Below are positions 40,859-59,702 of a stretch of 64,000 bases of DNA, piece after piece. This stretch comes from Elusimicrobiota bacterium (lineage in GTDB: Bacteria; Elusimicrobiota; UBA8919): the NCBI GenBank assembly GCA_028718185.1, contig JAQUMH010000003.1:8961-72960 (forward strand), given 5' to 3'. The translations under genes were made by a program, and so were the position numbers. Numbering within the stretch: position 1 is the stretch's first letter; every line of letters begins with the position of its first letter. The notes beneath the pieces were generated by a model, which saw only the letters and a list, made by a program, of their open reading frames with translations, was not told where the DNA came from and did no database searches.

Positions 40859-40887
40859 TTGACAAAACGTGAAAAATACTTTATAAA
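40859..40887 (+). promoter_or_regulatory. Sigma70-type promoter driving the riboswitch-led operon
   Basis: TTGACA (40859-40864), an exactly 17-nt spacer, then TATAAA (40882-40887). The aptamer begins ~10 nt downstream. Confidence 0.6.
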
Positions 40888-40896
40888 TATAGTGTA

Positions 40897-40977
40897 AGCG
40901 ATAAAGGCAAATGCCGATTAAAATCGGCAGACGCAAAGCCATAATCCCGCGTCGGGCGGGATGCCGGGTTACCGAAA
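40897..40977 (+). promoter_or_regulatory. c-di-GMP-I (GEMM-I) riboswitch aptamer
   Basis: The sequence is AAGGCAAA-[TGCCGAT TAAA ATCGGCA]-GACGCAAAGCC-ATAA-[TCCCGC GTCG GCGGGA]-TGCCGGGTTACCGAAA. The GGCAAA, GACGCAAAGCC and GGGUUACCGA blocks and the two hairpins match the GEMM-I consensus as in Vc2. Confidence 0.85.
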
Positions 40978-41056
40978 TTAGATACAATTTTTAAACAGAT
41001 ATTACTGCCGTGCATTAGATGGCAGTGATAAGTTGTCTGTTTAGGTTATAACTAAT

Positions 41057-41090
41057 CCGAGTTTCGGTATCCCCGTTAGCTCGGTTTTTT
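41057..41090 (+). terminator. Candidate intrinsic terminator/expression platform of the riboswitch
   Basis: CCGAG (41057-41061) ... CTCGG (41080-41084) is followed by TTTTTT (41085-41090). The loop segment CGGTATCCCCG can alternatively pair with the aptamer 3' strand CGGGTTACCG. The stem is short, so this is moderate at best. Confidence 0.45.
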
Positions 41091-41122
41091 GTTGTAAAGG
41101 TAATTAAGCAATAGAGGCAGCT

Positions 41123-42787
41123 ATGAAAAAAATCAATTACCAGATATTAAATACAGTCCAATGTCCGAGGTCCAATGTCCTGGGTCAACGGCTTATATTT
41201 ATATTTTTTGTTTTAGTATTGACCTTGGACCTCGGACTTCGGACCTCGGACAGTCTCTACGCTGCCTCTTCCGGCGGTCAGGTAGGTCAGTTCCTTTCCT
41301 GGGGTGCCGGTGCAAGGGCGCTTGCTATGGGTAAAGCGTTTTTAGCGATTTCAGATGATGCAACTGCTACATATTGGAACCCTGCAGGGTTAACTCAAAT
41401 TGAGCGTAAGGAATTTACCGGACTTTACGCTAAGTTGTGGTATGACACGACTTATAGTTTTATTTCGTATGTTCATCCGACAACAAAATCAGGAGTCTTC
41501 GGTGTTTCACTCGTATCCCTTACATCTTCTAAGTTTGAAAAAGTTTCAATTGAAAGAAATGCTCAAAATGATGTTGTTGATTTTAAAGTTTTAGGAACAT
41601 TTGATGACACGCAGACGGCAATAACCGGTTCATTTGCCAAAGACCTCTCCAAAAAACTTGCGTTTGGTGCTAATGCAAAGTATGTTTCTCATGTAATTGA
41701 TGTTTACACGGTTGCGTTTATAACATCTGACGTAGCTATTATGATGAAAGATGTTTATCCGAAACTAAAACTTGCAATAAATATACAGAATATGATATCG
41801 CTAAAGTTAGGTGATACTGATGATGATTTCCCGATTGTTTTGAAATTAGGTGCTGCTTACAGGGCGTTAAAAGATAAATTAATAGTTGCGCTTGATGTTG
41901 AAAAGGGTATGAAATCTAACATAAATTATCATATTGGAACCGAATATTGGGCAATGGATTATATCGCTGCAAGATTCGGATTTGATGTCGGTGATACCGG
42001 AATAAGAGAAACAACAGCAGGTATGGGCGGAAGATATAAAGATTATTCTCTTGATTTAGCAATGGCGTTTCATGAATTAGGGGCTTCTACAAGAGTCTCT
42101 GCAAGCTGGAAATTTGGTAAATCTTCCAGGACCGGCAAATTTGAAGAAATGGCAAAATATTTCAAAGAAGGAATGGAAGCATATAAAGTCGGAGAATATC
42201 TTGTTTCTATGGATCGTCTTTCAAAAGCGTATAGTATTGACCCGACAAATGAAGACCTTTCAAGAGCGATTCCGAGAATCCAGGTTGTTTCAACTTGGAT
42301 AAATGCTGAAAAAGGAACTTCCGTAGAAGCAGAAGCAACCAGGACAGGTATTGCTTATTATATTGAAAATGATATAAATAACGCGATTATGGCAATGAGA
42401 CATGCATATTCTTTACAGCCACAGAATGAAAATTTAAGACGTTTATTAAACGAAGTTGAAAAAGAAGCAGGGCAGACACTTACGCCGATTTCAGGTATTA
42501 AATCCACATCAGCTCCGGCACTCAGTTTAATTGAACAAAAACAGGAAAAAGCAAGAGAATATTTCTCAAAGAAACAATATGATGCTGCTATCAATGAATG
42601 TCAGGAAATCCTTATTATTGACTCAAAGAATTTATTAGCATTAAAGAGAATGGGTTCCTGTTATTACCAGATGGGTCTTAAAGATAAAGCGATTGCAACC
42701 TGGAAAAAAGTACTTGAAATTGATCCTACTGATAAAGATGTTCTGGATATTTTAAGAATGTTCGGAGGAGAAGGAGAACAAAAATGA
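41123..42787 (+). CDS. PorV-like outer-membrane barrel fused to C-terminal TPR repeats
   Basis: 'GQFLSWGAGARALAMGKAFLAISDDATATYWNPAGLT' matches the PorV-type N-terminal signature, as in 28683 and 51044. The C-terminal ~200 aa hold TPR-like repeats (e.g. 'YDAAINECQEILIIDSKNLLALKRMGSCYYQMGLKDKAIATWKKVLEIDP'). The stop overlaps the next start in ATGA. Confidence 0.8.
   Translation: MKKINYQILNTVQCPRSNVLGQRLIFIFFVLVLTLDLGLRTSDSLYAASSGGQVGQFLSWGAGARALAMGKAFLAISDDATATYWNPAGLTQIERKEFTGLYAKLWYDTTYSFISYVHPTTKSGVFGVSLVSLTSSKFEKVSIERNAQNDVVDFKVLGTFDDTQTAITGSFAKDLSKKLAFGANAKYVSHVIDVYTVAFITSDVAIMMKDVYPKLKLAINIQNMISLKLGDTDDDFPIVLKLGAAYRALKDKLIVALDVEKGMKSNINYHIGTEYWAMDYIAARFGFDVGDTGIRETTAGMGGRYKDYSLDLAMAFHELGASTRVSASWKFGKSSRTGKFEEMAKYFKEGMEAYKVGEYLVSMDRLSKAYSIDPTNEDLSRAIPRIQVVSTWINAEKGTSVEAEATRTGIAYYIENDINNAIMAMRHAYSLQPQNENLRRLLNEVEKEAGQTLTPISGIKSTSAPALSLIEQKQEKAREYFSKKQYDAAINECQEILIIDSKNLLALKRMGSCYYQMGLKDKAIATWKKVLEIDPTDKDVLDILRMFGGEGEQK
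41154..41253 (+). repeat. Heptamer-periodic palindrome (GTCCAAT/GTCCGAG units) embedded in the 5' end of CDS 41123..42787
   Basis: The left arm CAGTCCAATGTCCGAGGTCCAATGTCCTGGGTCAA (41154-41188) pairs with the right arm TTGACCTTGGACCTCGGACTTCGGACCTCGGACAG (41219-41253). A T-rich 30-nt loop encodes the hydrophobic core of the predicted signal peptide. Confidence 0.75.
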
Positions 42788-44742
42788 GAAAAGTAGTTAA
42801 GCTATTAAGTAATCAGGCGGTAGAGTGGGTTTTATTTGTTGTTTTACTACTATACCATTTTACCGCTATAATTTATGCTGAAACCGAATATTCCTCACTT
42901 CTGCAGGAAAAAATGAAGATTGAAAAAGAATATGAGAAAAGGATTATAGATATTGTAGAAAAAATTGTCGGTTCCGGAAAATCAGTTGTTTTTGTTTCAG
43001 CAGAATTACAGATTGTTAAAGCAACATCTCAGAAAAATCAGAGAGAGGGAAATGCCAGTCAAACGAATCCTTTTTCCGGGTTAAAATCCAAGCCGCAGGT
43101 TCTTCCGGGATTTGATGAAGACAGCGCAGCACCTGTTCAGCAAGCTTCTCCCGGTTCAGAAAAATCAGCAGGGTTAAGTCAGAGTATTGAACAAACTGTT
43201 ATTCCGACCATACTTAAGTTATTAAAAGTTACAATTCTTATTGACAAAGGTGTTCAGGAAGCCAAAAAGACTATTATTAAGGAAGCAATTAAGCAATCGA
43301 TTAGTTCTGACATAGGTGCGGATAAGCTTGTACTTGAAATAAAAGAAGCACCATTTTCGTCAGAAGCTTTTTGGGCACCTTTTATTAAACCAACTGTTTT
43401 AGTCCCGCTTATTTTAGGAGTAATATTTCTTATTGTTTTAATGGGACCGCTTCAGAGTGTACTTTTATCGTTTGCCTCAGCAATTAGAGAAGGTAAAAGT
43501 GGCGGTGATTTCACCGTTTTTTCAAAGACTGAATCAAAAGGTGAAACAAGTGGAACTGCGGGTGGCGGTGCAGGCGGTGGTGTTGCAGGCGGCGCGGGTG
43601 GAGTTGCAGATGCAGGTGGTGTTGGCGGTGAATCAATAACAGAATTAATGGAAAAGGAGGATAAGAAAGTGAAAAAGAAAGAAAAACCATTTGCATTTAT
43701 TACGAAAGATAACCTAAAAAATCTTATTTATCTTATACAGGAAGAGCCTCCGGAAGTGATTGCGTTGATTGTTACCTATCTTGAACCTGAACTGTCTGCG
43801 GATGTAGTTGCATCGCTTTCTTCTGATTTACAGCTTCAGACGGCAATATGTATTGCAAATGTGAAACTCAGTTCTGAGGAAGATGTATATAAAATCCATG
43901 AAAAGATTAAGGGCAAAATTGATTTTCTTGTCGGTGGTATAGATGTCTTCATAAAGATTATTGAACAAGTTGATAACAAGGTCAGGAAAGAAATGTCGGA
44001 TACCCTTGAAAAACAGTCACCAAGACTTGCAAGAAAAGTTCGTGAAAGTATTTTCATGTTTGAAGATTTGGCAAAACTGCCCGACCAGACAGTTCAGTTT
44101 ATTTTAAGGGAAATAAAAACTGATCAGATAGCAATTGCCTTAAAAGGTACCGGTGTTGAAGCGGTTATGCAAAAAGTTCTGGCAAATATGTCCGAAGGTG
44201 GTAGAGTTTTACTGAAAGAAGAAATGGATTTTGGTAAACCATACAGCCAGCAGCAAATCGGTGAGGTCCAGCGTGAAATAGAAAAAACAGTTAAAAAAAT
44301 GGAAAAAGATAAGAAAATTGTTTTAAGACAAGATGATGAATCAGAGAAACAAGGAGTTGAGGTTGAAGGTCGTCTTCAGAAACTGAATATTGGTGAAGAA
44401 TATAGAACAGTACAGCCACAGCAATCACAACAATCACAGCAGTCCCAACAATCTCAAAAAACTACCGAGTCGCCTCAAAGAGCAATTGAATACTACAATG
44501 CCGGTATTACTTCATATTCTTCCGGTAAAATCGACGATGCAATACATTATTTCCAGCGTTCGGTTGAATATAATCAGAATTTTTGGCAGGCTTGGCAATA
44601 TCTCGGGAGCTGTCTCTACTCAAAGGGAAGAATTGACGACGCTATAAAAGCATACGAGAAATCATTATCAGCAAACCCGTCAAACACGCAACTCCGTGAC
44701 TGGCTCCAGGGAGAAAAACAGAAAAGAGCAGCAGCAAAATAG
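42784..44742 (+). CDS. Two-TM membrane protein with a FliF/SctJ-like periplasmic segment, Gly-rich linker, FliG-like middle and C-terminal domains, Q/S linker and TPR repeats
   Basis: TM1 is at aa ~14-32 and TM2 at aa ~200-222. Aa ~300-510 read 'PPEVIALIVTYLEPELSADVVASLSSDLQ...VGGIDVFIKIIEQVDNKVRKEMSDTLEKQSPRLARKVRESIFMFEDLAKLPDQTVQFILREIKTDQIAIALKGTGVEAVMQKVLANMSEGGRVLLKEEMD'. This tracks FliG (cf. MFVFEDI/L, LALALKGA, NMSKRAA..L+DEL in characterised FliGs). The periplasmic 'IVGSGKSVVFVSAEL' and 'VTILIDKG' recall FliF/SctJ ring-building motifs. Confidence 0.75.
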   Translation: MRKVVKLLSNQAVEWVLFVVLLLYHFTAIIYAETEYSSLLQEKMKIEKEYEKRIIDIVEKIVGSGKSVVFVSAELQIVKATSQKNQREGNASQTNPFSGLKSKPQVLPGFDEDSAAPVQQASPGSEKSAGLSQSIEQTVIPTILKLLKVTILIDKGVQEAKKTIIKEAIKQSISSDIGADKLVLEIKEAPFSSEAFWAPFIKPTVLVPLILGVIFLIVLMGPLQSVLLSFASAIREGKSGGDFTVFSKTESKGETSGTAGGGAGGGVAGGAGGVADAGGVGGESITELMEKEDKKVKKKEKPFAFITKDNLKNLIYLIQEEPPEVIALIVTYLEPELSADVVASLSSDLQLQTAICIANVKLSSEEDVYKIHEKIKGKIDFLVGGIDVFIKIIEQVDNKVRKEMSDTLEKQSPRLARKVRESIFMFEDLAKLPDQTVQFILREIKTDQIAIALKGTGVEAVMQKVLANMSEGGRVLLKEEMDFGKPYSQQQIGEVQREIEKTVKKMEKDKKIVLRQDDESEKQGVEVEGRLQKLNIGEEYRTVQPQQSQQSQQSQQSQKTTESPQRAIEYYNAGITSYSSGKIDDAIHYFQRSVEYNQNFWQAWQYLGSCLYSKGRIDDAIKAYEKSLSANPSNTQLRDWLQGEKQKRAAAK

Positions 44743-44754
44743 GAGAGTAGAGCT

Positions 44755-44857
44755 CTTAGCGTTATAGAGTTTTAGAGTTCGTAGGGTTTTAGAGTTTATT
44801 GATTCAAATTCTTAACCCTAAAACCCTAAAACCCTATAACTCTATAACCCTATAACA
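44755..44857 (+). repeat. Octamer-periodic palindrome of the TATAGRG family, after the FliG-like gene
   Basis: The left arm is GTTATAGAGTTTTAGAGTTCGTAGGGTTTTAGAGTTTA and the right arm is TTAACCCTAAAACCCTAAAACCCTATAACTCTATAACCCTATAAC. Confidence 0.75.
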
Positions 44858-44875
44858 CGTACGGGAGGTTTTAAA

Positions 44876-47800
44876 ATGAGCGAAGAAAAAAAAGATGTTT
44901 TCGGAGGAGGGTTCCCGCCATTTCCACAGGAAAACAATTCAATGCCGTCTGCACTGGATTTACCACCATCATCTCAGGGTATGCCGCCTATGATTCCCAA
45001 TGCACCTTTCTCATCTCAGAATGTTTCTCCTTCGTCTAGCTCGTCGTCCGTTGATTATTCGAAAAAATTTCAGGAGATGGAACAGACATATATGAATATG
45101 GCGAAAATGCTTGAAGAAGTGAAAGAAAAACATGAAAAAGAAAAACATCTCTGGGAAGAAAAAATAAATTCCCTTCAAAAGGATTCACAGGAAGCATTAG
45201 ATGAATTTGCCGTTCGCCAGTTAAAAGAAGAAGAAGAAAGAACAAAAAAAGAGTCAGAAATCCGTGAAGAGAAATTGAAACTTGAAATGTCATTAAAAGA
45301 ACTTGGAAATAAATTAGAGGAGGCACGGGAAAAAACATTTCTTCAGGCACTTAAGTCAAAAGAAGATGAAGCAACTTCAGTGCGACTCGAAGCTGCTATG
45401 AAAGACGTGCAGTTAAAAAGCGTTCAGGAAAATGCATCACGCGAAATAGAAGCAGTTAAAATAAATTTAGGGGCAGCTTTATCGGAAAGGCTTGTAGCCT
45501 TACAAAAACAATATGAAAATAAACTTACCGATATTTATATAAAATCGTCCCAGAAGGAAAAGGAACTAATAGGCAAACTTGATGCTTTACAAACAGAAAA
45601 AGAGGCACTTTTAAAAAAAGCAGAACACGAGAAAAATCATCTTAATAGCGACTTTAATGATAAGATTTTAAAGAAACAAAATGAAATAAATCTAATCACA
45701 TCAAAATTAGATAATGTAAAAGATAATTACAATAAAATTCTTGGTTCACTCGAGAATGACCTGTCTTCTGCTAAAGCCAATATACTTATGGAAGTTGCAA
45801 AAACTAAATCAGAATACGAAGAAAAACTAAACCAGCTGAAAACAGAATATTCTGTGGTAGAGGGTCAAAAAATAACACTCAATGCACAATTAGAAGCAGA
45901 AAGGAAGATTTCAGCTGAAAAATTAAAAAATAAGGAAGACGAAATCGGCTCGCTGTATAAACAATTTACTGAAAGAGAAAACTTGTTAAAGGCTGATTTT
46001 GAAAAGCAAATTTCACAAAATATTGAAGATAAGAAACGGCTTGAAGGGGAATTCCGCCAGACAGTAGAAAAAACAAGTGAACGGGATGACGAATGGCGTT
46101 CAAAAATGGATGGCTTAAAAGTCGAATATGAAAATAAACTTAAAGATAAAGATTTACAATTACAAAAAGTTGAAATGGGTTTCAATAATAAACTTGCAGA
46201 ACTGAATAATATCCACCAGCAAAACGTTGACCAGTTAAAAGAAAATATTAACCAGCAAAACCAGCTGTTATTACAGGAAAGGACGAGATTAGAAAAACTA
46301 ATTTCAGAAAAAGACAAGGAAATGCTGGAAGTCAAAACCTCCCTTCAGGAGGAACTAAGAAAACAAAAAGATTTTTACGAAGAAGTGCTTTTAGAAAGGG
46401 AAGAAAAGATTTCCAGTATTAATGCAGATTTTGAAAAAAAAGAGGCAGCCATTCGTGCTGATTCTGACAAACGACTTGCTGATGCGTTGAATGAAAATCT
46501 GAAACTGGAAATGAAATTTAGAAATGAAATAGAAGTTTTAACCAACGAATATACTAAAAGACTTTCGGTATCACTTGATGAGAAAAAAAATATTGAGCAG
46601 GAATACCAATCTCGGCTAAGTTTTATTGAAAAAGAGCACTTGAGGGAAATGGATTTATTGAAGGAAAGGCAAATAACCGAAATTGAAAAACAGAAACAGG
46701 AATTCCAGAAAAAATTAGAAGCCGAAGGTGCTTCTAAAAATGAACTTGAGAAAAACCACCAGATTACTATAGAAAAAAAGGTGTCAGAATTTGAAAAAAG
46801 TTTAAGAGTCAGAGATGATGAGTGGCGATTAAAATATGAAGGGACAAAAAATGAATATGACGGCAAAATCAGGCAAATTGAATCAGAAAAAGCGTTACTG
46901 CAGCAGGGGATGTCGAAACAACTTGAAGAAATGAATAACAACTGGCTCAAAAAAATTCATTCTGAAAAATCATATATGGAAGAAAAAGTTGCAGCTCTTT
47001 CTTCCGAACTTAGTTCAAAGGAAAAGCGGTGGTCTGAAGAGAATGAAAAATACAAATTGCTAATGTCAGCTAAGGAAAACGATATTTTGTCGGTTAAAAG
47101 TCAGTACGAAAACCGTATTTCTGAAATGACAAAGACGGAGAATAATCTTAAGACGATGATTGAGAAAGTATCGGCAGATTTGGTTAATGAACGTGCAAGA
47201 TTTTCAAAAGAGATTTCTACCAAAACAAAAGAATATGAAGAAAAAATGCAAGACTATATCAAAAGTAAAGAAAACGAAATTTCAACCATTAAGATGGAAA
47301 CAGAAAATATCCGCAATAAATGGTTTGAAGAAAAACAACAATGGGTAGATGAACTGACAAAAAAGACAACATTTCCAGCTGAAGAATTAAAAACAATTAA
47401 TCTTAAAAAAGCAGAACTGGAAGCGATGGAACTTAAATTAAAACTCAGTCAAAGCGTATTAGATGAGCGTATTAATATGGAAAAACTTAAATATGATAAT
47501 ATGATTGTGATAAAAGATGACCAGTTGGAATCTCTTAAGAAGCAGTTGCAAAATGCAGAAATAGATATGGAAGGGAAAATAAAATCAGCATACCAGAAGA
47601 ATATGTTAGATAAAAAAATATTAGAAGAAAAAGAAATAAGCAGTTTGAACGACCAGTTGGAATCTACAAAGAGGCGGTTACAAAATGCAGAAGACAATGT
47701 AGATGAGAAAGTAAAATCTGCATATCAGAAGGACTCGTTAGATAAAAAAATGTTGGAAGAAAAAGAAAGAGAAATACGCAATTTAAATGGCCAGTTGGAA

Positions 47801-48367
47801 TCTCTTAAAACTCAATTAAAAAATACAGAAAAGGAGATAGAAGAAAAAACAGAAATGATGTTTCAAAATGCTTCAATAGATAAGTCAATGCTAAAAGAAA
47901 AAGATACGGAACTGAATAAACTAAAAGATAGCATTCAAAATATCAAACTGGTTAAACAACAATTTGAAAAAGAACTTGCCGGAATACAGGCAGAAAATAA
48001 GAGAAAAGAGGAAGAAATTTTAATGCTTCAAAAAAATGTGGAAAACAAACTGATTTCACAGAAAGAAAAAATGGAATCGGAATTTTCTGAGAAAATGACC
48101 GTTATCGTTGAAAAATACGAGCAGGAAAAGAAAGTAATTGAGGAATCATTCCTGAATGCAAATGCACAAAATTTATCAGAAATAGAAATATTGAAAAGTG
48201 AAATTGAAACTTTTAAGAATGCACAGGCATTCCAAAAAGCAATTCTTGATTCCAGAGATACTATCATGCATCCCGAATCACCTGTTGATGTTGAAACCGG
48301 GCAATCTGATAAAAAGAAAGATTCTGTATTGGGGAAAATACTGAATTGGCTTAATTCCCCTATATAA
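44876..48367 (+). CDS. 1163-aa coiled-coil protein with a Pro/Ser-rich N-terminus and no signal peptide or TM segment
   Basis: GGGAGG RBS. The composition is K/E/L/Q-rich with heptad character almost throughout. Three ~43-aa tandem repeats (QLESLKKQLQNAE...KSAYQK..LDKK.LEEKE) are encoded at ~47520-47900. Confidence 0.85.
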   Translation: MSEEKKDVFGGGFPPFPQENNSMPSALDLPPSSQGMPPMIPNAPFSSQNVSPSSSSSSVDYSKKFQEMEQTYMNMAKMLEEVKEKHEKEKHLWEEKINSLQKDSQEALDEFAVRQLKEEEERTKKESEIREEKLKLEMSLKELGNKLEEAREKTFLQALKSKEDEATSVRLEAAMKDVQLKSVQENASREIEAVKINLGAALSERLVALQKQYENKLTDIYIKSSQKEKELIGKLDALQTEKEALLKKAEHEKNHLNSDFNDKILKKQNEINLITSKLDNVKDNYNKILGSLENDLSSAKANILMEVAKTKSEYEEKLNQLKTEYSVVEGQKITLNAQLEAERKISAEKLKNKEDEIGSLYKQFTERENLLKADFEKQISQNIEDKKRLEGEFRQTVEKTSERDDEWRSKMDGLKVEYENKLKDKDLQLQKVEMGFNNKLAELNNIHQQNVDQLKENINQQNQLLLQERTRLEKLISEKDKEMLEVKTSLQEELRKQKDFYEEVLLEREEKISSINADFEKKEAAIRADSDKRLADALNENLKLEMKFRNEIEVLTNEYTKRLSVSLDEKKNIEQEYQSRLSFIEKEHLREMDLLKERQITEIEKQKQEFQKKLEAEGASKNELEKNHQITIEKKVSEFEKSLRVRDDEWRLKYEGTKNEYDGKIRQIESEKALLQQGMSKQLEEMNNNWLKKIHSEKSYMEEKVAALSSELSSKEKRWSEENEKYKLLMSAKENDILSVKSQYENRISEMTKTENNLKTMIEKVSADLVNERARFSKEISTKTKEYEEKMQDYIKSKENEISTIKMETENIRNKWFEEKQQWVDELTKKTTFPAEELKTINLKKAELEAMELKLKLSQSVLDERINMEKLKYDNMIVIKDDQLESLKKQLQNAEIDMEGKIKSAYQKNMLDKKILEEKEISSLNDQLESTKRRLQNAEDNVDEKVKSAYQKDSLDKKMLEEKEREIRNLNGQLESLKTQLKNTEKEIEEKTEMMFQNASIDKSMLKEKDTELNKLKDSIQNIKLVKQQFEKELAGIQAENKRKEEEILMLQKNVENKLISQKEKMESEFSEKMTVIVEKYEQEKKVIEESFLNANAQNLSEIEILKSEIETFKNAQAFQKAILDSRDTIMHPESPVDVETGQSDKKKDSVLGKILNWLNSPI

Positions 48368-52493: not shown

Positions 52494-53453
52494 ATGAAAT
52501 CATTAACTGATTACTGGAGAACAAAATTTACTGAATTGCAGAAGCAATTTAGTGACGAAAAGAAAAACAATAATGTTGAAAAAAAGGAACAAAAAGATAA
52601 AATATTTGAACATCAGGTTACTATAAAAGAACTTCAGACAAAAATTACTGAACTTGAAAAAAACATTTCAGGAAAAGTCGCAGATATTGAACAACTTAAA
52701 AAAGAGAAAAAATCTTCAGCAGAAAAACAGGACCTTGAAAAACAAAATTTGGCAAACGAAATTATTGAAAACATTCATCTTACCGAAAAAAAGAAGAATA
52801 TTGAAATACAGGTTCTTATTTCCGAATTTGTTAGATTTTTGAGAAAAGATGTCGGTCATGTTAGCGGTCACGTAAGGGTTTTGACTGAAATCTGTAAAGA
52901 AAAAGAAGCCCAAGCGGTTATTAATGACCTTATTGAGTATACCGAATGGATGACGCTAATGGCAGAGGAACTTTCATGGTTTTCACAACCTTTTAAAAAA
53001 GAAAGCGGTACATCTAAAATAGATACTGCAATTGATGAGTTGCTACCGGATTTTAAGCGACCTATATCAAAAAATAATATTGAAATATCAAAAGATATAT
53101 CAGAAGGGATTCCCGATATACCGGTTTTTCAGGAACATTTGAAAACTGTATTTAGTGAAATAATGAAAAATTCTATTGACGCAATGCCTTCCGGTGGCTC
53201 AATCACTATAAAAGCATACGTGTCAGATAAAAATGTTGTTATAGAATTTAAAGATACCGGTCGCGGTATTCCTCTGCATCTAATAGAAAAAGTTACAAGA
53301 CCGTTTTTTTCGACCAAGAAAAAGATTGGTTTTGGATTTGGTACAACAAAAGCCCGTATAATTTTAGATACTTATGACAGTCATTTAGATATTAACAGTA
53401 TAGAAGGCGAAGGAACTGTTGTAAAAGTTGTAATACCCGTAACAATATCGTAA
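52494..53453 (+). CDS. Soluble histidine-kinase-like ATPase (coiled-coil N-terminus, atypical H-box region, HATPase_c)
   Basis: GGAG RBS. It has an N box 'EIMKNSIDA', G1 'KDTGRGIP' and G2 'GFGFGTT'. Candidate phospho-His lies in 'LRKDVGHVSGHVRVL'. No TM segment is present. Confidence 0.75.
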   Translation: MKSLTDYWRTKFTELQKQFSDEKKNNNVEKKEQKDKIFEHQVTIKELQTKITELEKNISGKVADIEQLKKEKKSSAEKQDLEKQNLANEIIENIHLTEKKKNIEIQVLISEFVRFLRKDVGHVSGHVRVLTEICKEKEAQAVINDLIEYTEWMTLMAEELSWFSQPFKKESGTSKIDTAIDELLPDFKRPISKNNIEISKDISEGIPDIPVFQEHLKTVFSEIMKNSIDAMPSGGSITIKAYVSDKNVVIEFKDTGRGIPLHLIEKVTRPFFSTKKKIGFGFGTTKARIILDTYDSHLDINSIEGEGTVVKVVIPVTIS

Positions 53454-53871: not shown

Positions 53872-54927
53872 GTGGATAAAATAAGAAATACTAATGCACA
53901 TTATTATCTTGCAAAAGCATATCATACTGCAGGTATGTTCTCCATGGCTATCGATGAATTTGATAAAGCATTAAAATTCTCACCTGAATATGCTAATATC
54001 CATTATGATTTAGCAAAAACATATGAAAAAATGGGGTTTTTTGGTAATGCTGCAAAAGAATATAAGATTGCCTTGGATATAAACTCACATTATGTTGATG
54101 CAAAAGAATCGCTTGCAAAACTTTTATCTAATAACCGCGACGAAAAACTGAAAATAAAGAAACAATTCAATATAAAAAAAATAATGAAATATTTACCTGC
54201 AGGGATAGCTACAGTTATAATTGTTTCAGTATGGTTTTTCCTTTATAAACCGGTACCGCCGACTATTGCATATTATTCCATTCCTTCTCTTCATCCTTCG
54301 GGAATTACGATTTCAGATAATGAAATATGGGTTTGTGACTGGTTTTCCCAGACACTTTATAAGCATAATCTTGATAATGTGCTGTCACTTGTTAAGTCGT
54401 ATAAACTTCAGGATATTCACCCTTCCAGTATTGCTTCCGGCAAGGATACTTTATGGGTTAGTGACGCATTTTCAAAGAAAATATTTCAGTTTGACAGGTA
54501 CACGCTGAAACTTATGGGAAGTTTTCCGGCTCCGGCAACAAGCCCGTCCGCCATATTCGATTCTAAAAATTTTTTGTGGACTTGTGATTCAGAAGATGAT
54601 AAGATATATAAGCATAAAAAGGACAAGGATTTAACGGTAATATTTTCAGCCCCGTTATCCAACCCTAACCCGGTCGGTCTTTACGTTAAAGGTAAAAATA
54701 TTTTTGTCGCTGATGCTGATACAGGTAAAGTTTATAGATATTTTTTAGATGAAAAACAGAAAAAAATAAGTCAGATTTCCATATATGACATCCCCGCTTT
54801 TGGTTCAAATGTAGCTTCAGGCAGAAAAATTTCAGGATTGAGTATGACCGCCGACACCTTATTTCTTACATCAGAGGGAACCGGTGAAGTATACAAAATC
54901 CCTTTTAAAATGTTAAAAGGAAAATAA
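53872..54927 (+). CDS. TPR, single TM and beta-propeller-like (NHL/YncE-like) protein
   Basis: GTG start preceded by GGAGTGAGG. The N-terminal TPRs read 'AHYYLAKAYHTAGMFSMAIDEFDKALKFSPEYANIHYDLAKTYEKMG'. The TM is 'LPAGIATVIIVSVWFFLY'. Repeated blade-like strings follow (IWVCDWFSQTLYKH, LWVSDAFSKKIFQF, LWTCDSEDDKIYKH, IFVADADTGKVYRY, LFLTSEGTGEVYKI). Confidence 0.75.
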   Translation: MDKIRNTNAHYYLAKAYHTAGMFSMAIDEFDKALKFSPEYANIHYDLAKTYEKMGFFGNAAKEYKIALDINSHYVDAKESLAKLLSNNRDEKLKIKKQFNIKKIMKYLPAGIATVIIVSVWFFLYKPVPPTIAYYSIPSLHPSGITISDNEIWVCDWFSQTLYKHNLDNVLSLVKSYKLQDIHPSSIASGKDTLWVSDAFSKKIFQFDRYTLKLMGSFPAPATSPSAIFDSKNFLWTCDSEDDKIYKHKKDKDLTVIFSAPLSNPNPVGLYVKGKNIFVADADTGKVYRYFLDEKQKKISQISIYDIPAFGSNVASGRKISGLSMTADTLFLTSEGTGEVYKIPFKMLKGK

Positions 54928-54933: not shown

Positions 54934-55035
54934 AGAGTTATAGAGTTTGTAGAGTTTGTAGAGTTATAGAGTTTGTAGAGTTTAAACCCTAAAACCCTAA
55001 AACCCTATAACCCTATAACTCTATAACCCTATAAC
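54934..55035 (+). repeat. Octamer-periodic palindrome of the TATAGRG family, between the propeller gene and the REC-GGDEF gene
   Basis: (GTTATAGA/GTTTGTAGA) x6, then TTTAAACCC, then (TAAAACCC/TATAACCC/TATAACTC) x6. Confidence 0.8.
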
Positions 55036-55065
55036 GTTATTTCACATTTAGGAGCTTTTTCATTT

Positions 55066-55998
55066 ATGAAAAAAAGGATACTTGTTGTTGATGATGATGT
55101 GCCGACACTCGAATATCTTGATTTTCTGTTTACTACTTATGGATATACTGTAAAAGTAGCTTCTTCCGGGGAATTAGCATTAAAAAGCTTAGAGCTTGAA
55201 TTGCCGGACCTTGTTTTTCTTGATTTAATGATGCCGAAACTATCAGGTTATGAAGTATGTTGCCAGATAAGAGCAAATCCCAGAACGGCAAATGTCCCGA
55301 TAGTTTTATATACAGCTACTACTATTGTTCCTGATGATATAACGAAAGGTATAGAAATCGGTGCCGATGAGTTTTTAACAAAACCTTTCAATTTAAGCGA
55401 ATTAGAAGCATTATTATTGAAACTTTTTGCAAGGCAGAGCAATGAAATGGGATATAACCCGTTAACAAAACTACCCGGGAACATTTTTATAGAGAAAGAA
55501 TTAAAAAATCGTTCAAATAATAACATAAATTTTGCATTTTGTTATTTAAATATAGATAATTTTAAAGCATATAATAATTTTTATGGTTTTAAAGACGGCG
55601 ACAAAGTAATTTTGTTTGCAGCAAATATTTTAAAGGAAGCAATAAATGAATTAGGCAGCCGAAGTGATTTTATCGGACATATCGGAGGAGATAATTTTAT
55701 TTTTATAACTACTACCGATAAAGTAGATATTATTTGTGAACGAGTAACAAAGAAATTCGACGAGTTAATCCTTAAACATTACGATGAAGAAGATATTAAA
55801 AGGGGTTATATGATTGCCCGGGATAAGGACAGTAATTTAAAAGAATTCTCATTTATGGCAGCCTCAATAAGCGTTCTTACTAATGAGAAGCAGCCTTTTC
55901 CAAGTCTTCCTCTTATAATAGAGACTTTGATATCACTAAAATTAAAGGCAAAGAAAAACCCAAATAAACCCAAAGGCAGTTACATATCCAAATTTTAA
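55066..55998 (+). CDS. Response regulator: REC domain plus a GGDEF-family domain with the degenerate signature GGDNF
   Basis: The REC domain has 'ILVVDDD', the phospho-acceptor context 'VFLDLMMP' and 'LTKPF'. The GGDEF domain reads 'NPLTKLPGN...YLNIDNFKAYNNFYGFKDGDKVI...IGHIGGDNFIFI'. Confidence 0.85.
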   Translation: MKKRILVVDDDVPTLEYLDFLFTTYGYTVKVASSGELALKSLELELPDLVFLDLMMPKLSGYEVCCQIRANPRTANVPIVLYTATTIVPDDITKGIEIGADEFLTKPFNLSELEALLLKLFARQSNEMGYNPLTKLPGNIFIEKELKNRSNNNINFAFCYLNIDNFKAYNNFYGFKDGDKVILFAANILKEAINELGSRSDFIGHIGGDNFIFITTTDKVDIICERVTKKFDELILKHYDEEDIKRGYMIARDKDSNLKEFSFMAASISVLTNEKQPFPSLPLIIETLISLKLKAKKNPNKPKGSYISKF

Positions 55999-56266
55999 AG
56001 TAATCCACTCCCTTGAAGACTTTTATGTTTTAATCCAACCCAAAAATAAAAAAGGTAGCCGCAGGGTCTTACCCTGCTTCCATAGTTGTAGTCGCAGACC
56101 CTTCTTAGTCTGCTGATGTTGTGTCTTTGTTTCAGCAGATGTGCTGCACAATGGGGATTTTTTTATTGTGTTTTTAGGGAAATTATGTAAAATAAAATAT
56201 AGATTATAACTCCACCTTCGAATTTAGAAACATTTTATAAAATCAAAAACAAGAGGATTTTTGAAA

Positions 56267-57286
56267 ATGAATAATATAACTAAAACTGAATATGTATCAT
56301 TTCTTACTAAACTAAAGCAAGAAATTATATCTGCAAGGCAAAAAGCCTACCAGGCAGTAAACAGACAACTTGTGGAATTATATCTTAGTATGGGTAAAAA
56401 TATTTATGAAAAAGTTGAATTGGCAAAGTGGGGCGAAAGGATTATAGAAACCGTTGCTTCTGACTTGCAAAAAGAATTTCCTGATACAAGAGGTTTCTCA
56501 TCAAAGAATCTTTGGAGAATGAAACAGATTTACGAAACATATAAAGATAACGAAAAACTCTCAACACTGTTGAGAGAATTGCCTTGGTCCCATAATGTTC
56601 TAATACTTCATCAGACAAAAACTATAGAAGAAAAAGAATTTTATATAAAAACCTACATAAACGAGAAATGGAGTTTCAGAGAACTTGAAAGGCAAATAGA
56701 TTCATCTTTATATGAAAGATATATGCTTTCCCGTAAAACAGATAAACTTGTTCCCCACACAAAAGAGAAAGACAAAACACTACTGTTTAAAGATGAGTAT
56801 ATGCTTGATTTTCTTGGGTTGAAAGATAATTTTCCTGAGAAAAATTTACAAAAAGCAATAGTTTCAAATTTGAAGCAATTTTTTCTTGAATTTGGCAAAT
56901 ATTTTACCTTTGTTGGCGAAGAATATAAAATTACCGTTGGTGACCAGGATTTTAAAATAGATTTATTGTTTTATCACAGGGTGTTAAAATGTTTAGTTGC
57001 AGTAGAGTTGAAAATTGGCGACTTTAAGCCGGAATATGTCGGTAAGATGCAGTTCTATTTAACAGCACTTGATGAAAAGACTAAACTGAAAGATGAAAAT
57101 CCGTCCGTAGGATTGGTACTTTGTAAATCAAAAAATGATGAAGTTGTCCGGATAGCAATAAGTAAAGCAATCTCTCCGGTGAAAGTCGCAACTTACAAAA
57201 CGAAAATTATTGATAAAAACCTGCTTAAAAGGAAATTACATTCGCTTCCTATGCCTGAAAAATCAGAAAAAGAAAATAATGTTTGA
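56267..57286 (+). CDS. DUF1016/YhcG-family PD-(D/E)XK nuclease-like protein
   Basis: The ORF track starts at TTG 56261. The ATG at 56267 has better spacing to AAGAGG (56251-56256). 'ARQKAYQAVNRQLVELYLSMGKNI', 'LPWSHNVLIL', 'EKEFYIKTYINEKWSFRELERQI' and the nuclease core 'FKIDLLFYHRVLKCLVAVELKIGDFKPEYVGKMQFYL' are typical of this family. Confidence 0.85.
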   Translation: MNNITKTEYVSFLTKLKQEIISARQKAYQAVNRQLVELYLSMGKNIYEKVELAKWGERIIETVASDLQKEFPDTRGFSSKNLWRMKQIYETYKDNEKLSTLLRELPWSHNVLILHQTKTIEEKEFYIKTYINEKWSFRELERQIDSSLYERYMLSRKTDKLVPHTKEKDKTLLFKDEYMLDFLGLKDNFPEKNLQKAIVSNLKQFFLEFGKYFTFVGEEYKITVGDQDFKIDLLFYHRVLKCLVAVELKIGDFKPEYVGKMQFYLTALDEKTKLKDENPSVGLVLCKSKNDEVVRIAISKAISPVKVATYKTKIIDKNLLKRKLHSLPMPEKSEKENNV

Positions 57287-57394
57287 ACAACAACTTGTGT
57301 TTTAAACTTGTTTAACAGTCTGGTGTATTTTACAATTCCCAAAAATGAACTTGACAGTAGCTTAAAAAGTTATATAATAATTTAAAAGTAGGAT

Positions 57395-57810
57395 GCTTAA
57401 TTTGTTGTACCGGAATTTGAAAGATTTAGGCAGAGCAAGCCTGCCTAACGGTAGTCAGGCTCTGCCACTACAATGTTGATGTAGTTGCCGACTTGCTTGC
57501 CGATAGGGCCAAAGTATTAGTGGTGGAGTCGGCATTAACATGTTGTATAGGAATTTCAATGATATCACGCCAAAGGGCGTGAAACTACAACTGTTTTTGT
57601 TTAAAACCTACTTGGTAGTTGCCCGCCAACGGTTCAGTGGCGGGCTTAACTTAATGTATAAGAATTTCAATGTTATAGATTCCCGATTAAGACGCTCGGG
57701 AATGACAATCTTTCCGTGTGTGTCATTCCCGCGAAAGCGGGAATCTAACTCGGTGTATAGGAATTTCAATGTTTGTAGTTGCACGTCTTGGCGTGCCTAA
57801 CTTGTTTATA
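57395..57810 (+). repeat. Composite tandem array: a conserved ~27-nt linker (TTAAC..TGTATAGGAATTTCAATG) alternating with GTAGT-type hairpin modules
   Basis: Linker copies lie at 57395-57423, 57535-57561, 57646-57672 and 57745-57771, spaced 140/111/99 nt. The intervening segments are self-complementary hairpins, e.g. GCCCGCCAACGGTTCAGTGGCGGGC, TTCCCGCGAAAGCGGGAA and GCACGTCTTGGCGTGC. Confidence 0.8.
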
Positions 57811-57815
57811 TTATT

Positions 57816-59702
57816 ATGGCTAATGCATCGGAAAGACGTAAATTTAAAAGATTTTCTTTGATTGAAGGAATGGCTGAACCGGTTGAAGTGTTTTTTCCGC
57901 CACCATTCTATCAGGGACCGATTGTAGGTAAAATTGTTGATATTTCTTCGGGTGGCATAGGAATGATTACAAGTGAGCCTGTGCCGAAGTTCTTTATATT
58001 TTCACTGCATATCGGATTGTCCGGAATTCCGTCGTTTGATGTAAAAGGTAAAGTAGTTCGTCTTGAAAATAAAAATAGCCAGTATTATACAGGTATTTCA
58101 TTTACTGAAATTGACGGTAATACTGCCGAGGTGCTGAAAAATATTGCTGAAGATAACGATAAATGCGATAAAAAAAGAGCGGAAGGACAAAAAGATTTCT
58201 GTTTTGAAGAATGCAAGTTTGCTTCTTTATGCGGTAAAAAAGAGAAATTAACAAAACTGCAAAATGCAAAGCAAACAACATCTAAAATTGATTTAAAAGA
58301 TGTTAAGGAGCAGAAAATGGCTGAAAAAAATGAAGAGAAAAAGGTATCTTCAACTGAGGATACCGAGAAAACAGTATTGTTGCCTCCGGTTCCGGATGCT
58401 AAAGTAGAAAAGACACAAATATTATCACCTGAAGAAAAACCCAAAGCAACCCCGAAAGAATCTGTAGAAAAAACAGTTTTGCTGACTCCTGCTGAGTTGT
58501 TATCTGCAAGAGGTGCGAAATCAAAAGCCGATATTGTGCCTGAAAAAAAATCGTCATCAGATAACACTGAAAAAACCGTTCTATTAACTCCCAAAGAACT
58601 GTCATCTGCAAGAGGTGTACAATCAAAAGTCGGAATTGCGTCTGAAAAAACTGCATCAACTGAAGATGAAAGACCCGTTATATTGCCTCCAATGACAACT
58701 AAAAGCGTTAAAAGAAAAATTAATCCTGTTTTCTATGTTTTACTGGTTTTAATTTTTGTTGCGATAGCCGGATTTATATATAAGGGTAAGATAGCCGGAT
58801 TTATCGCTGCCGGTGCAGATAAAAAACTAAGTGCAGGTAATTACCAGGAAGCAATAAAAAACTATAAGATTGCACTTATGATTGAGCCTGAAAATATGAA
58901 TGTACGTGTAAAATTGGCAGAATCATACGCTATGATGAAAATGTATAACGAGTCAGAGACAGAGTATATCAAGATATTGAAAATTAATCCGGCTATGTTT
59001 GATGCTCTTCTTGGTTTTGGTAAATTATATGCCAATCTTAACCGTAATAGAGAAGCGATTGTATATCTTGAAAAAGCCAAATCCGCATCGCCCCAGGATT
59101 GGGACACAAAAATTAATTTAGGTATGTGTTATGAAAAAGAAAAAAAATATGATAAAGCGCTCATGGAATTTTCCGGTATTGTTGCAGGTTCAAAATTACC
59201 GGATGAAGCATATTTGTCTATCGCCAGGTGTTTGGGAATAACAGGGTTACCTAAACAAGCAATTCCATTTATGGGTAAAACGCTTTTGCCAAAAACTGCA
59301 ACTGAATATTTTGAAATGGGTATTGGTAAAAGTGAAAAAGAACCTGAAGAAGCAATTGTGCACTTTATAGAAGCGCTTGTAAAAAAGAATAATTTTGCAG
59401 AAGCATATGAATGGCTTGGGCTACTATACAAAAAGAAAAATTTAAACGATAGTTCGGTTAAGGCATATATTATTGCATCGGAAATAAATCCCAATTCAGC
59501 AAGAGTATGTTTTAAGCTTGCACAAATATATGCAACTAATAAAGATTCAGCAAACGCGATTGCACAACTTGGTAAAGCCATTTCTTTGGACACAACATAT
59601 GTTGAAACGGCAAAGAAAACAGCCGAATTCAGCGAATTGCAAAAGACCGCAGAATTTAAAAAACTATTGAAAGTTAAAAAAAGTAATGTCAAGAAAAAAT
59701 AA
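57816..59702 (+). CDS. PilZ-domain protein with a repeat-rich K/E/S linker, one TM segment and C-terminal TPR repeats
   Basis: 'RRKFKR' (RxxxR) plus 'DISSGGIG' (D/NxSxxG) is the canonical PilZ c-di-GMP binding pair. Tandem 'EKTVLLTP.EL.SARG..SK' repeats follow. The TM is 'VFYVLLVLIFVAIAGFIY'. At least 6 TPR-like repeats follow that. Confidence 0.85.
   Translation: MANASERRKFKRFSLIEGMAEPVEVFFPPPFYQGPIVGKIVDISSGGIGMITSEPVPKFFIFSLHIGLSGIPSFDVKGKVVRLENKNSQYYTGISFTEIDGNTAEVLKNIAEDNDKCDKKRAEGQKDFCFEECKFASLCGKKEKLTKLQNAKQTTSKIDLKDVKEQKMAEKNEEKKVSSTEDTEKTVLLPPVPDAKVEKTQILSPEEKPKATPKESVEKTVLLTPAELLSARGAKSKADIVPEKKSSSDNTEKTVLLTPKELSSARGVQSKVGIASEKTASTEDERPVILPPMTTKSVKRKINPVFYVLLVLIFVAIAGFIYKGKIAGFIAAGADKKLSAGNYQEAIKNYKIALMIEPENMNVRVKLAESYAMMKMYNESETEYIKILKINPAMFDALLGFGKLYANLNRNREAIVYLEKAKSASPQDWDTKINLGMCYEKEKKYDKALMEFSGIVAGSKLPDEAYLSIARCLGITGLPKQAIPFMGKTLLPKTATEYFEMGIGKSEKEPEEAIVHFIEALVKKNNFAEAYEWLGLLYKKKNLNDSSVKAYIIASEINPNSARVCFKLAQIYATNKDSANAIAQLGKAISLDTTYVETAKKTAEFSELQKTAEFKKLLKVKKSNVKKK

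Follow-up and report, generated by a model that had tools for sequence, protein, structure and literature searches.

A riboswitch-headed locus of Elusimicrobiota that joins a FliF/FliG-like fusion protein to PorV-like barrels: a candidate stator-driven, non-flagellar surface machine

What might a protein with the middle and C-terminal domains of the flagellar switch protein FliG be doing in one gene run with outer-membrane barrels of the type IX secretion system (T9SS)? The question is raised by positions 40859-59702 of a 64,000-nucleotide stretch of DNA from an Elusimicrobiota bacterium (assembly GCA_028718185.1, contig JAQUMH010000003.1, positions 8,961 to 72,960 of the forward strand), which is referred to here as the window. 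An earlier note, made from the sequence without database searches, had read this region as an envelope-spanning apparatus under the control of cyclic di-GMP (c-di-GMP). When the region is placed beside related loci, the account that we favour, with modest confidence, is that of a stator-driven, non-flagellar, envelope-spanning motor that moves or deploys giant surface adhesins. As part of this account, it seems to us somewhat probable that the locus is the window-lineage form of a machine that is conserved among free-living Elusimicrobiota and of which Firestonebacteria have a simpler version.

The core genes and their riboswitch

The core of the locus is made up of the following features, which are referred to by the short names g1 to g3 where they are genes.

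40859-40887, + strand: sigma-70-type promoter, TTGACA-17-TATAAA, read from the sequence, directly 5' of the aptamer
40896-40976, + strand: c-di-GMP-I (GEMM-I) aptamer (RF01051, 44.7 bits, gathering score 35)
41058-41090, + strand: expression platform with a predicted intrinsic terminator, CCGAGUUUCGGUAUCCC...CUCGG then U6 (folding prediction)
41123-42787, + strand: g1, 554 amino acids (aa), signal peptide, 14-strand PorV-like outer-membrane barrel and C-terminal periplasmic tetratricopeptide repeats (TPR) of 11 helices (NF033709, AlphaFold2 (AF2) model, Foldseek)
42784-44742, + strand: g2, 652 aa, fusion of a FliF-RBM3-like domain (RBM, ring-building motif), FliG_M, FliG_C and TPR, candidate rotor (Pfam, AF2 model, Foldseek)
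44876-48367, + strand: g3, 1163 aa, cytoplasmic coiled coil with a Pro-rich N terminus and a conserved C-terminal WLNxP(I/V) tail (composition, heptads)

Domains of the window proteins were assigned by Pfam and NCBIfam scans and their topology by hydropathy profiles, and the structures of g1 and g2 are AF2 models that were compared with the PDB by Foldseek. The comparison set consists of 52 non-redundant related loci from Elusimicrobiota and Firestonebacteria, whose g2 homologues are 25-74% identical to the window protein; the scan of species-representative genomes for g2 homologues gave 51 loci in this range of identity, and further loci were found by starting from MotA homologues instead of g2. 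Nearly all g2 homologues occur in metagenome-assembled genomes (MAGs) of Elusimicrobiota, and some in Firestonebacteria. Synteny was assessed by tblastn of the window proteins, and of one relative's stator proteins, against all loci, and the counts given below are restricted to loci whose flanking sequence sufficed (evaluable loci).

The assignment of g1 as a PorV-like barrel with TPR, already made in the earlier note, agrees with both profile and fold. The protein scores 122 bits on NF033709, the PorV/PorQ family (cutoff 90), and its AF2 model (predicted local distance difference test score, pLDDT, 83) shows 14 strands and then 11 helices. The leading Foldseek matches are PorV chains from Flavobacterium johnsoniae T9SS translocon complexes (8gl6_F, E 9.4e-13, and 6h3i_F), with FadL and TodX ranking lower. 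On profile and fold together, g1 therefore provides the PorV-family outer-membrane barrel by which a T9SS is recognised. Its stop codon overlaps the start of g2 in the sequence ATGA at 42784, as had been noticed before, with a strong Shine-Dalgarno-like run upstream of the overlap, and the two genes stay together among relatives: in 40 of 46 evaluable loci, g2 has g1 immediately before it.

The product of g2 is the most unusual component of the core. Pfam identifies FliG_M (3.5e-11) and FliG_C (8e-26) as well as TPR, and the AF2 model (pLDDT 66.8) places these in a defined order: a hydrophobic helix at the N terminus, a periplasmic alpha-beta-beta-(insert)-beta-beta-alpha-beta domain whose insert is disordered and about 50 aa long, one transmembrane (TM) helix, a Gly-rich linker, the helical FliG_M and FliG_C domains, a second linker and the TPR. 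Foldseek ranks the middle and C-terminal domains of FliG (FliG_MC) first (1lkv, E 1.6e-10), the RBM3/collar part of FliF next and TPR proteins last, the matches to the RBM3/collar region of the FliF S ring (6scn, 6sd1, 7cg7) having E values of about 4e-4 and TM-scores on the target of 0.5-0.57. Residues 281-520 align end to end with Thermotoga maritima FliG_MC (E 4e-35), and the acidic pair of the torque helix, E479/E480, is invariant across an alignment of 18 full-length g2 homologues. Within the disordered insert, P108 is invariant and L107 nearly so.

Equally informative is what g2 lacks. FliG_N is absent, TIGR00207 aligning at profile positions 91-333 only (120 bits, cutoff 226.7), and in place of the RBM1, RBM2 and RBM3 domains of FliF there is a single RBM3-like domain, fused to FliG; some homologues also carry PF08345 (YscJ_FliF_C). 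Profile, fold and alignment evidence, together with the missing FliG_N, identify g2, as far as sequence and model can show, as a natural fusion of a reduced FliF with FliG_MC, to which a TPR has been added. The FliF-RBM3, FliG_MC and TPR parts of the two-TM protein described in the earlier note thus stand; the first of its two hydrophobic segments is probably a cleavable signal peptide, because homologues end it in AxA-like sites. Ring formation by such a protein would have an engineered parallel, as artificial FliF-FliG fusions are reported to form rings (PMC10941966, PMC11481574).

This fused architecture defines a sizeable family, with about 36 full-length and about 33 TPR-less members among the best 150 representatives at 50% identity; single-stretch matches only were used for these numbers, because generic TPR proteins dominate the counts obtained with the full-length g2 profile. 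Those TPR-less members that have a named source come from Elusimicrobiota as well, and one TPR-less representative lies on a 2.7-kb contig with an uninformative context. One locus, L044 (MGVE01000015.1, from the MAG of L024), was considered as a flagellar operon and rejected. At 9120-11909 it encodes a 346-aa soluble FliG_M-FliG_C-TPR paralogue without a membrane part, between a ParA-type ATPase gene and parB.

Could the locus then be what is left of a conventional flagellum? The likeness to a flagellar basal body is found in the FliG middle and C-terminal domains of g2 with their acidic torque-helix pair, in its FliF RBM3/collar-like periplasmic fold, and in the genes that relatives carry beside g2, which encode MotA with its Arg/Glu pair, MotB with plug, Asp and OmpA-like domain, and FlbD. 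A remnant or highly divergent flagellum, either left over or part of a split flagellar regulon, would account for FliG, FliF-like, MotA, MotB and FlbD proteins that all belong to flagellar families, and complete flagella are encoded in a few Elusimicrobiota genomes (Uzun et al., bioRxiv 10.1101/2022.07.08.499144). We nevertheless regard such an origin of the locus as very improbable. Purifying selection on the genes is clear throughout the phylum, and their operon includes partners that are not flagellar, namely the PorV-like barrel, the giant coiled coil and sorting-domain giants. In contrast to the flagellar proteins, g2 has no FliG_N, one RBM-like domain, a disordered insert instead of an ordered collar, and FliF and FliG naturally fused with a C-terminal TPR. 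FliM, FliN, the export gate (FlhA/B, FliPQR, FliI), rod, hook and filament were all absent from the window and from the Pfam-annotated loci L001-L006, L058, L060 and L062, so that neither export gate, rod, hook, filament nor C-ring gene is seen in any examined locus. The same survey reports that most free-living Elusimicrobiota carry motAB, flbD and fliG but no flagellar structural genes, and two of our loci, L017 and L040, come from genomes that it names (Uzun et al., bioRxiv 10.1101/2022.07.08.499144).

The gene that follows g2 adds a third conserved element to the proposed non-flagellar motor. In g3, hydropathy shows no TM segment and Pfam no family at cutoff, the composition is extreme (E 17%, K 15%, L 11%, P 0.1%; E+K about 32%), and the best-register heptad contrast at positions a and d is 0.388, significantly above the 0.274 +/- 0.015 of shuffled sequences; a simple Fourier test for a 3.5-residue period was not significant. 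As it lacks a TM segment and both its composition and its heptad contrast fit, the earlier description of a 1163-aa cytoplasmic coiled coil is a fair one. Among relatives, the gene directly after g2 almost always encodes a helical protein of 580-2100 aa that is rich in E, K and L and poor in Pro and Gly, and those of the window type have the Pro-rich N terminus and the WLNxP(I/V) tail in common. The conserved order is accordingly riboswitch, barrel-TPR gene, FliF/FliG fusion gene and gene for a long helical protein, often with a giant gene upstream. Because of the synteny statistics across the 52 non-redundant loci, chance neighbourhood can be rejected as an explanation for this arrangement.

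The promoter and GEMM-I riboswitch that the earlier note placed at the head of the gene run are both present. The promoter had been left out by a promoter scan whose rule demands a T at position 6 of the second hexamer. The aptamer is the sole element in the whole window above its Rfam gathering score; a second riboswitch-like match at 20052-20146 (15 bits, E 0.58), absent from the Rfam results, was dismissed as noise. Downstream of the aptamer, a terminator-like hairpin with a U-run precedes the first ATG, that of g1, and its 5' arm (41062-41073) is complementary to the aptamer 3' strand GGGUUACCGAA (40966-40977), with a duplex energy of -14.7 kcal/mol. The unconstrained minimum-free-energy fold of the leader chooses the antiterminator. 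As the aptamer 3' strand pairs with the terminator arm, a ligand-stabilised aptamer should release the terminator, and an OFF switch is predicted, in which high c-di-GMP stops the operon.

The design with terminator and mutually exclusive antiterminator is kept in the window and in L007, L008 and L009. In L012 and L005 the start codon lies directly 3' of the aptamer and a purine-rich ribosome-binding site pairs with the 5' flank; these riboswitches are also predicted to be OFF switches, through sequestration of the ribosome-binding site. A first Rfam test of relatives found aptamers at the equivalent position in four of seven, and a covariance model built from the relatives' aptamers then located + strand aptamers just upstream of the g1 homologue in 31 non-redundant loci. 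Among evaluable loci, 29 of 43 have an aptamer ahead of the core genes, with eight tandem pairs. The relatives' aptamers score 37-92 bits, and all that were re-checked pass Rfam's own thresholds. Three loci (L024 7348-7725, L055 7303-7650, L052 5072-5466) have RF01051 in tandem with the GGC variant RF03167 (c-di-GMP-I-GGC), and such mixed-class pairs may provide two-input or two-ligand control. In two others (L011 1343-1777, L016 7853-8338), the riboswitch is separated from the g1 homologue by a gene for a small protein (144-161 aa), most of which is an FlgD_ig-type domain.

A known riboswitch offers a parallel for this kind of control. Cd1 of Clostridioides difficile is a GEMM-I riboswitch upstream of the flgB flagellar operon. 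The two are alike in that a GEMM-I aptamer with a terminator heads a large operon for a motor, putative in our case, with OFF behaviour at high c-di-GMP predicted for both; they differ in that the operon described here is non-flagellar and in that many relatives have tandem aptamers, including RF01051 with RF03167.

Stator and chemotaxis genes beside the fusion gene

Genes for a stator are found in relatives of the window. A same-strand MotA gene lies 118-5501 bp downstream of g2 in 16 of 41 evaluable loci, normally with FlbD and one or two MotB genes, and a flagellar-type flbD-motA-motB cluster adjoins a gene of the g2 family in at least 19 loci that are deeply diverged, which suggests that the stator belongs to the system. 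Minimal units of g2, motA and motB occur in L054, L058 and L049. The search that started from MotA added the g2-flbD-motA-motB units of L058 and of the P0079 context, as well as one flbD-motAB cluster that stands alone, and L062 is a further locus with a stator beside a g2-family gene. The locus of one TPR-less g2 relative contains the giant gene, g1, g2 and a convergent motA-motB-motB. Of the parts that the earlier note found missing (GldK/L/M/N, SprA, FliM/N, MotAB and an export gate), MotAB is thus absent from the window but present in relatives.

By sequence, this stator is of the flagellar type. The relatives' MotA aligns over its full length with a solved flagellar MotA (E 1e-52) and has retained an Arg and a Glu at a spacing of eight residues, and MotB2 keeps the transmembrane Asp and the plug, the other MotB paralogue being without the Asp. 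Tandem MotB paralogues follow MotA in L001 (15680-17051), L005 (15479-16858) and L062 (11589-13054); of the two in L001, one has the transmembrane Asp and the other has SYTGMA instead of SDITT. In several lineages a pyruvate phosphate dikinase gene is a conserved neighbour a few genes downstream of motB: it comes immediately after motB in L001 and L005, and in L058 and the P0079 context it is two to six genes farther away.

A hint of motility comes from chemotaxis (che) operons, which adjoin the core in L003/L020, L042, L016 and L055. In L016 and L055 the che operon is followed, just upstream of the riboswitch, by a homologue of the window gene g7 (listed below) in which a CheY-like receiver (REC) replaces the TPR, giving a REC-TM-propeller protein. 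In Firestonebacteria a che operon stands beside g2 and a coiled-coil gene. The che operon that precedes riboswitch and core in L016, an Endomicrobiales MAG, also contains a gene for a 743-aa actin-fold protein similar to FtsA, MreB and PilM (1769-4000).

Several observations weigh against a stator-driven motor and have to be set beside this evidence. By tblastn, MotA, MotB and FlbD are all absent from the 64-kb window, and a stator is also not within reach in 22 of the 33 loci whose downstream sequence extends for 9 kb or more. The Firestonebacteria loci have neither g1 nor riboswitch, and we found no homologue of a rod or other periplasmic shaft. Within g2, the FliM-binding EHPQR motif is changed to EEPPE, and the FliG arginines beside the acidic pair are shifted or lost, with no conservation in register, at positions that we take to correspond to R281 and R297 of Escherichia coli FliG. 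The g2 model is of moderate confidence and its FliF match is weak, the OFF logic of the riboswitch is a folding prediction, and ring formation, rotation, the TPR contacts and the motility output are steps that we infer; what the comparison shows is the identity of the domains, the conserved order of the genes, the linkage to riboswitch and stator, and the common C termini of the giants described below. The reported absence of flagella, finally, comes from the KEGG-based survey of one preprint.

The divergence within g2 would also fit a complex that generates no force at all. It would be a static scaffold in the envelope, or a signalling complex, with the FliG-like domain as an interaction module; it would anchor giant adhesins and sense the envelope or c-di-GMP, and MotAB would serve another function. 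Besides the altered arginines and EHPQR motif, the many loci without a stator within 10 kb are consistent with this, as are the HATPase, REC and PilZ genes nearby, and the soluble FliG_MC-TPR paralogue in the parAB operon of L044 suggests that the module can be used outside a motor. A scaffold would however leave unexplained why flbD-motA-motB is so tightly adjacent to g2-family genes in loci as divergent as these, down to the minimal units, and why both the acidic torque-helix pair of g2 and the Arg/Glu pair of MotA are retained. We therefore consider a scaffold improbable, and continue to favour a motor that is driven by a flagellar-type stator.

Surface proteins, their barrels and the downstream genes

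If the system is a motor, what could it move? The genes on either side of the core that encode surface proteins and their probable partners are the following.

28638-29630, + strand: outer-membrane barrel, PorP/SprF- and PorV-like, 330 aa (PorP_SprF 25.7 bits, cutoff 22.3)
29730-39326, + strand: giant surface protein, 3198 aa, with FG-GAP, CBM6, Big_7, LamG and a type-A T9SS-like sorting domain (Pfam, TIGR04183)
48486-50849, + strand: g4, secreted Fn3/immunoglobulin (Ig)-repeat protein, 787 aa, with a type-B T9SS-like C-terminal sorting domain (fn3, CHU_C)
51044-52315, + strand: g5, PorP/SprF-like outer-membrane barrel with coiled coil and LysM, 423 aa (Pfam)

The giant encoded upstream of the core is a candidate cargo or adhesin of the machine, as it occupies the same position as the giants of relatives. 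Its isolated C terminus scores 31 bits on TIGR04183 (Por_Secre_tail, cutoff 23). The barrel encoded directly upstream of it has weaker UPF0164 and PorV matches as well, shares 27% identity with the g1 barrel, and probably serves the giant as anchor or partner. Of 30 evaluable loci, 14 have a same-strand open reading frame of at least 1500 aa immediately before the core, and all-against-all BLAST shows that these giants have in common a C-terminal region of about 250 aa that ends in an FlgD_ig/T9SS-like Ig domain. Pfam finds no family in the last 1000 aa of the giants of L001, L004 and L005 and a weak FlgD_ig (23.8 bits, below the cutoff of 27) in those of L049. With gene calls of 18,879 aa (L004 1-7838) and 14,454 aa (L001 1-7823), they are among the largest bacterial proteins.

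The window as a whole is a dense island of sorting-domain cargo with glycan-binding domains, at least five of its proteins carrying such C termini. Four large surface proteins with CBM6, FG-GAP, Big_7 and F5/8-C domains are encoded at 72-6377, 11509-16005, 20353-23577 and 29730-39326, and they have a common type-A-like C terminus (VYPNPYNP...GKIGLIK) with about 50-80% identity over 140-600 aligned residues. Almost all genes of the window lie on the + strand, and its G+C content is low (about 31-44% per 2-kb window, and about 33-38% over the locus). Among the giant genes are also found genes for three AraC-family regulators, a GH123-like glycosidase and an MttB-family methyltransferase, at 10538-11320 (-), 17961-18734 (-), 18880-19776 (+), 16120-17889 (+) and 23666-25093 (+).

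Downstream of the core, g4 and g5 form a second pair of cargo and barrel. The type-B sorting domain that the earlier note had assigned to g4 lies above the CHU_C cutoff of 27 bits, with 29.9 bits for the whole protein and 36.6 bits for the isolated C terminus; on TIGR04131 the score is 33.3 bits (cutoff 35). With g4 by CHU_C and the 3198-aa giant by TIGR04183, both type-B and type-A sorting-domain cargo are thus present. The LysM of g5 scores 32.3 bits (cutoff 20.9) and its barrel 33.3 bits on PorP_SprF (cutoff 22.3), with the NCBIfam PorV_fam and PorP_fam models below their cutoffs and TIGR03519 at 39 bits (cutoff 90.6). Barrel and LysM had both been named before, and the barrel is better described as PorP/SprF-like than as PorV-like. 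A PorP-like gene beside a type-B cargo gene is a typical arrangement in Bacteroidota. By Pfam, g5 is such a PorP/SprF-like protein directly downstream of type-B cargo, and it is a probable anchor partner of g4.

These features also allow comparison with the T9SS and gliding machinery of Bacteroidota. Likenesses are the 14-strand PorV-family barrel of g1, with its top fold match to PorV in the SprA translocon, a PorP/SprF-like g5 beside type-B g4, as SprF stands beside SprB, giant surface proteins that have repeats and end in sorting domains, and an ion-driven inner-membrane motor tied to outer-membrane parts, which is a proposal in our case. In contrast to that machinery, the system would have MotAB/FliG instead of GldLM as its motor, joins its barrel to a TPR, is under the control of a c-di-GMP riboswitch and occurs in a phylum outside the FCB (Fibrobacterota-Chlorobiota-Bacteroidota) group. 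The scanned window proteins and annotated related loci contain no match to GldK/L/M/N (PorK/L/M/N), with which a GldK/N ring is absent, to the SprA translocon or to the PorU sortase.

From these observations it could be argued that secretion, not movement, is the function. A T9SS-like secretion or surface-attachment system, in which FliF/FliG-MotAB replaces the PorLM/GldLM energiser for export or anchoring of sorting-domain proteins and the giants are static adhesins or glycan-binding enzymes, is a serious rival, which we hold to be unlikely. It would make good use of the PorV-like and PorP-like barrels and of the type-A and type-B sorting domains, all of which are present, and the sorting-domain proteins of the window contain glycan-handling domains (CBM6, F5/8-C, GH123-like). 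As GldKLMN/PorKLMN genes are not seen in the window or related loci, another energiser would indeed be needed. On the other hand, the missing SprA-like translocon and PorU sortase argue against it, a 1000-2000-aa cytoplasmic coiled coil has no obvious place in it, and the che-operon linkage and predicted c-di-GMP OFF switch suit motility better than constitutive secretion. For the motor that we favour, these last points are among the reasons for preferring a motility output.

Taken together, profile and fold comparisons support the PorV-like, FliF-RBM3-like, FliG_MC, type-B sorting domain and PorP-like assignments. Homologues of the core genes are moreover syntenic among relatives, so that two outcomes named in the earlier note as refuting its view, scattered homologues and unsupported FliF/FliG-like and PorV-like assignments, did not come about. 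Its view that the locus is neither flagellar nor a canonical T9SS locus is upheld as well, as the core genes of both were not found in the window or the annotated relatives; the system is neither a flagellum nor a T9SS, and it borrows defining parts of each. A literature search found no described system with this combination, and no paper on the operon, the fusion protein, its PorV-like partner or the riboswitch link beyond a passing remark in Uzun et al. (bioRxiv 10.1101/2022.07.08.499144).

The region 40859-59702 contains ten same-strand genes in the list of open reading frames. All features listed in the earlier note lie where it had placed them, and its list of nine genes omitted a nuclease gene, g9. 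The features downstream of g5 are given here.

52494-53453, + strand: g6, soluble HATPase_c protein with an N-terminal coiled coil, 319 aa (Pfam 1.6e-17)
53872-54927, + strand: g7, bitopic protein with cytoplasmic TPR, one TM segment and a periplasmic NHL/SGL-type beta-propeller, 351 aa (Pfam, TM scan)
55066-55998, + strand: g8, REC and degenerate GGDEF (Pfam; motif read from the translation)
56261-57286, + strand: g9, YhcG/DUF1016 PDDEXK nuclease with a TTG start, between g8 and g10 (Pfam)
57351-57378, + strand: sigma-70 promoter, TTGACA-16-TATAAT, 12 of 12 matches, preceding g10 (promoter scan)
57540-57800, + strand: small open reading frame, 86 aa, without a Pfam match, between this promoter and g10
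57816-59702, + strand: g10, PilZ, one TM segment and TPR, 628 aa (Pfam PilZ 35.4 bits, cutoff 22.5)

In the close relatives L004/L007, L008 and L009, g4 to g7 are kept as a block, with 61-65% identity for g4 and 52-57% for g6; g7 is 70-71% identical in close relatives. The identity of g4 falls to 33-34% in L024 and L029, and g4-like genes turn up again at the edge of some Endomicrobiales loci. The earlier descriptions of g6 as a soluble HATPase_c protein and of g7 as a TPR-TM-propeller protein are confirmed by Pfam and, for g7, by the TM scan; a HisKA domain is not recognisable in g6 by Pfam.

The picture changes after g7. Counterparts of g8 and g10 are absent within 10 kb in all 57 loci L001-L057 (tblastn), and tRNA genes come next after g7 in two close relatives, in one of them together with a resolvase gene. 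It is probable that the nuclease gene g9 was inserted without any relation to the system and that the conserved block ends there, and the consensus promoter before g10 suggests a separate transcription unit. Given the missing counterparts and the promoter, we treat g8 to g10 as lineage-specific neighbours. Both domains of the REC-GGDEF protein described earlier are found in g8 by Pfam, the GGDEF match spanning positions 4-116 of 161, and its motif is a degenerate GGDNF in place of an intact GG(D/E)EF. The PilZ-TM-TPR architecture of g10 was correctly recognised, and its c-di-GMP-binding motifs, read from the translation, are intact (RRKFKR for RxxxR, DISSGG for DxSxxG). The two proteins may be a lineage-specific regulator and c-di-GMP receptor, and their membership of the system is unsupported by synteny. 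Of the three layers of c-di-GMP control proposed before, the riboswitch is thus conserved, while the REC-GGDEF and PilZ-TPR genes are non-syntenic and separated by the nuclease gene, and the PilZ-TPR gene has its own promoter. Directly downstream of g10, two genes for Proton_antipo_M (Mrp/NuoL-like) antiporter subunits are found at 59867-63129 (+).

A proposed machine and its possible significance

When these components are placed into the context of the cell envelope, we propose that g2 assembles into a ring in the inner membrane by way of its FliF-RBM3-like periplasmic domain, with the attached FliG middle and C-terminal domains facing the cytoplasm. Proton-driven, flagellar-type MotA/MotB, with FlbD, would push the FliG torque helix; in the source genome of the window, the stator genes presumably lie elsewhere. 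The coiled coil g3 would replace the FliM/FliN C ring and would probably dock on the cytoplasmic TPR of g2 via its C-terminal WLNxP tail. On the periplasmic side, the TPR of g1 could capture the disordered, motif-bearing loop of the g2 ring, which would couple the motor to the outer membrane, and g1 would hold the giants by their T9SS-type C-terminal sorting domains. The type-B protein g4 and the PorP-like barrel with LysM, g5, would act as a second cargo and its anchor, fixed to peptidoglycan. The earlier suggestion that the TPR modules all assemble with one another does not fit such a layout, because the TPR of g1 is periplasmic and that of g2 follows the cytoplasmic FliG domains, so that they cannot all meet.

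The output would most likely be movement or deployment of the giant adhesins, and thus a gliding-type surface motility analogous to the GldLM-driven movement of SprB in Bacteroidota. We favour motility over pure secretion as the output because che operons are linked to the core, because the riboswitch is predicted to be an OFF switch, and because the phylum includes magnetotactic members without flagella. With ligand bound, the c-di-GMP-I riboswitch would terminate transcription and the machine would be off at high c-di-GMP, with a che operon added in some lineages. A comparable layout is known from the Agl-Glt gliding machinery of Myxococcus, which combines an inner-membrane motor of the MotAB/TolQR family with TPR-rich periplasmic connectors, outer-membrane barrels, AglZ as a long coiled-coil protein of the cytoplasm, and a surface adhesin. 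The resemblance in overall layout is by analogy only, and the motor proposed here differs in being of flagellar type with a FliG-like partner, as the Agl motor is without FliG.

To our knowledge, neither FliG nor flagellar-type MotAB has been known outside flagella. The operon described here is conserved across a phylum and joins FliG/MotAB to outer-membrane parts like those of a T9SS and to giant adhesins, and the genomes that carry it are reported to be flagellum-less. It can therefore be speculated, if tentatively and with more doubt than conviction, that the system is a previously unrecognised rotary nanomachine, in which a minimal, fused FliF-FliG rotor and MotAB, without export apparatus, rod, hook or filament, are coupled via a PorV-TPR barrel to giant adhesins. 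In that sense the system may be a new kind of bacterial surface motor.

If this is true, it would constitute a new class of envelope-spanning motor and a new mechanism of bacterial surface motility. It would be a living case of a flagellar rotor and stator outside the flagellum, with a bearing on the origin or co-option of the flagellar motor, and the fusion of FliF-RBM3 to FliG_MC would be a natural minimal rotor for structural and evolutionary work on the modularity of that motor. T9SS-type sorting domains and PorV/PorP barrels would be seen to work outside the FCB group with a different energiser, and the machine would be among the most consistently riboswitch-controlled known, with tandem and mixed-class aptamers included. 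For the Elusimicrobiota themselves, it would offer a concrete candidate, at the molecular level, for the way in which cells of this phylum move, and could explain the movement of its flagellum-less magnetotactic members.

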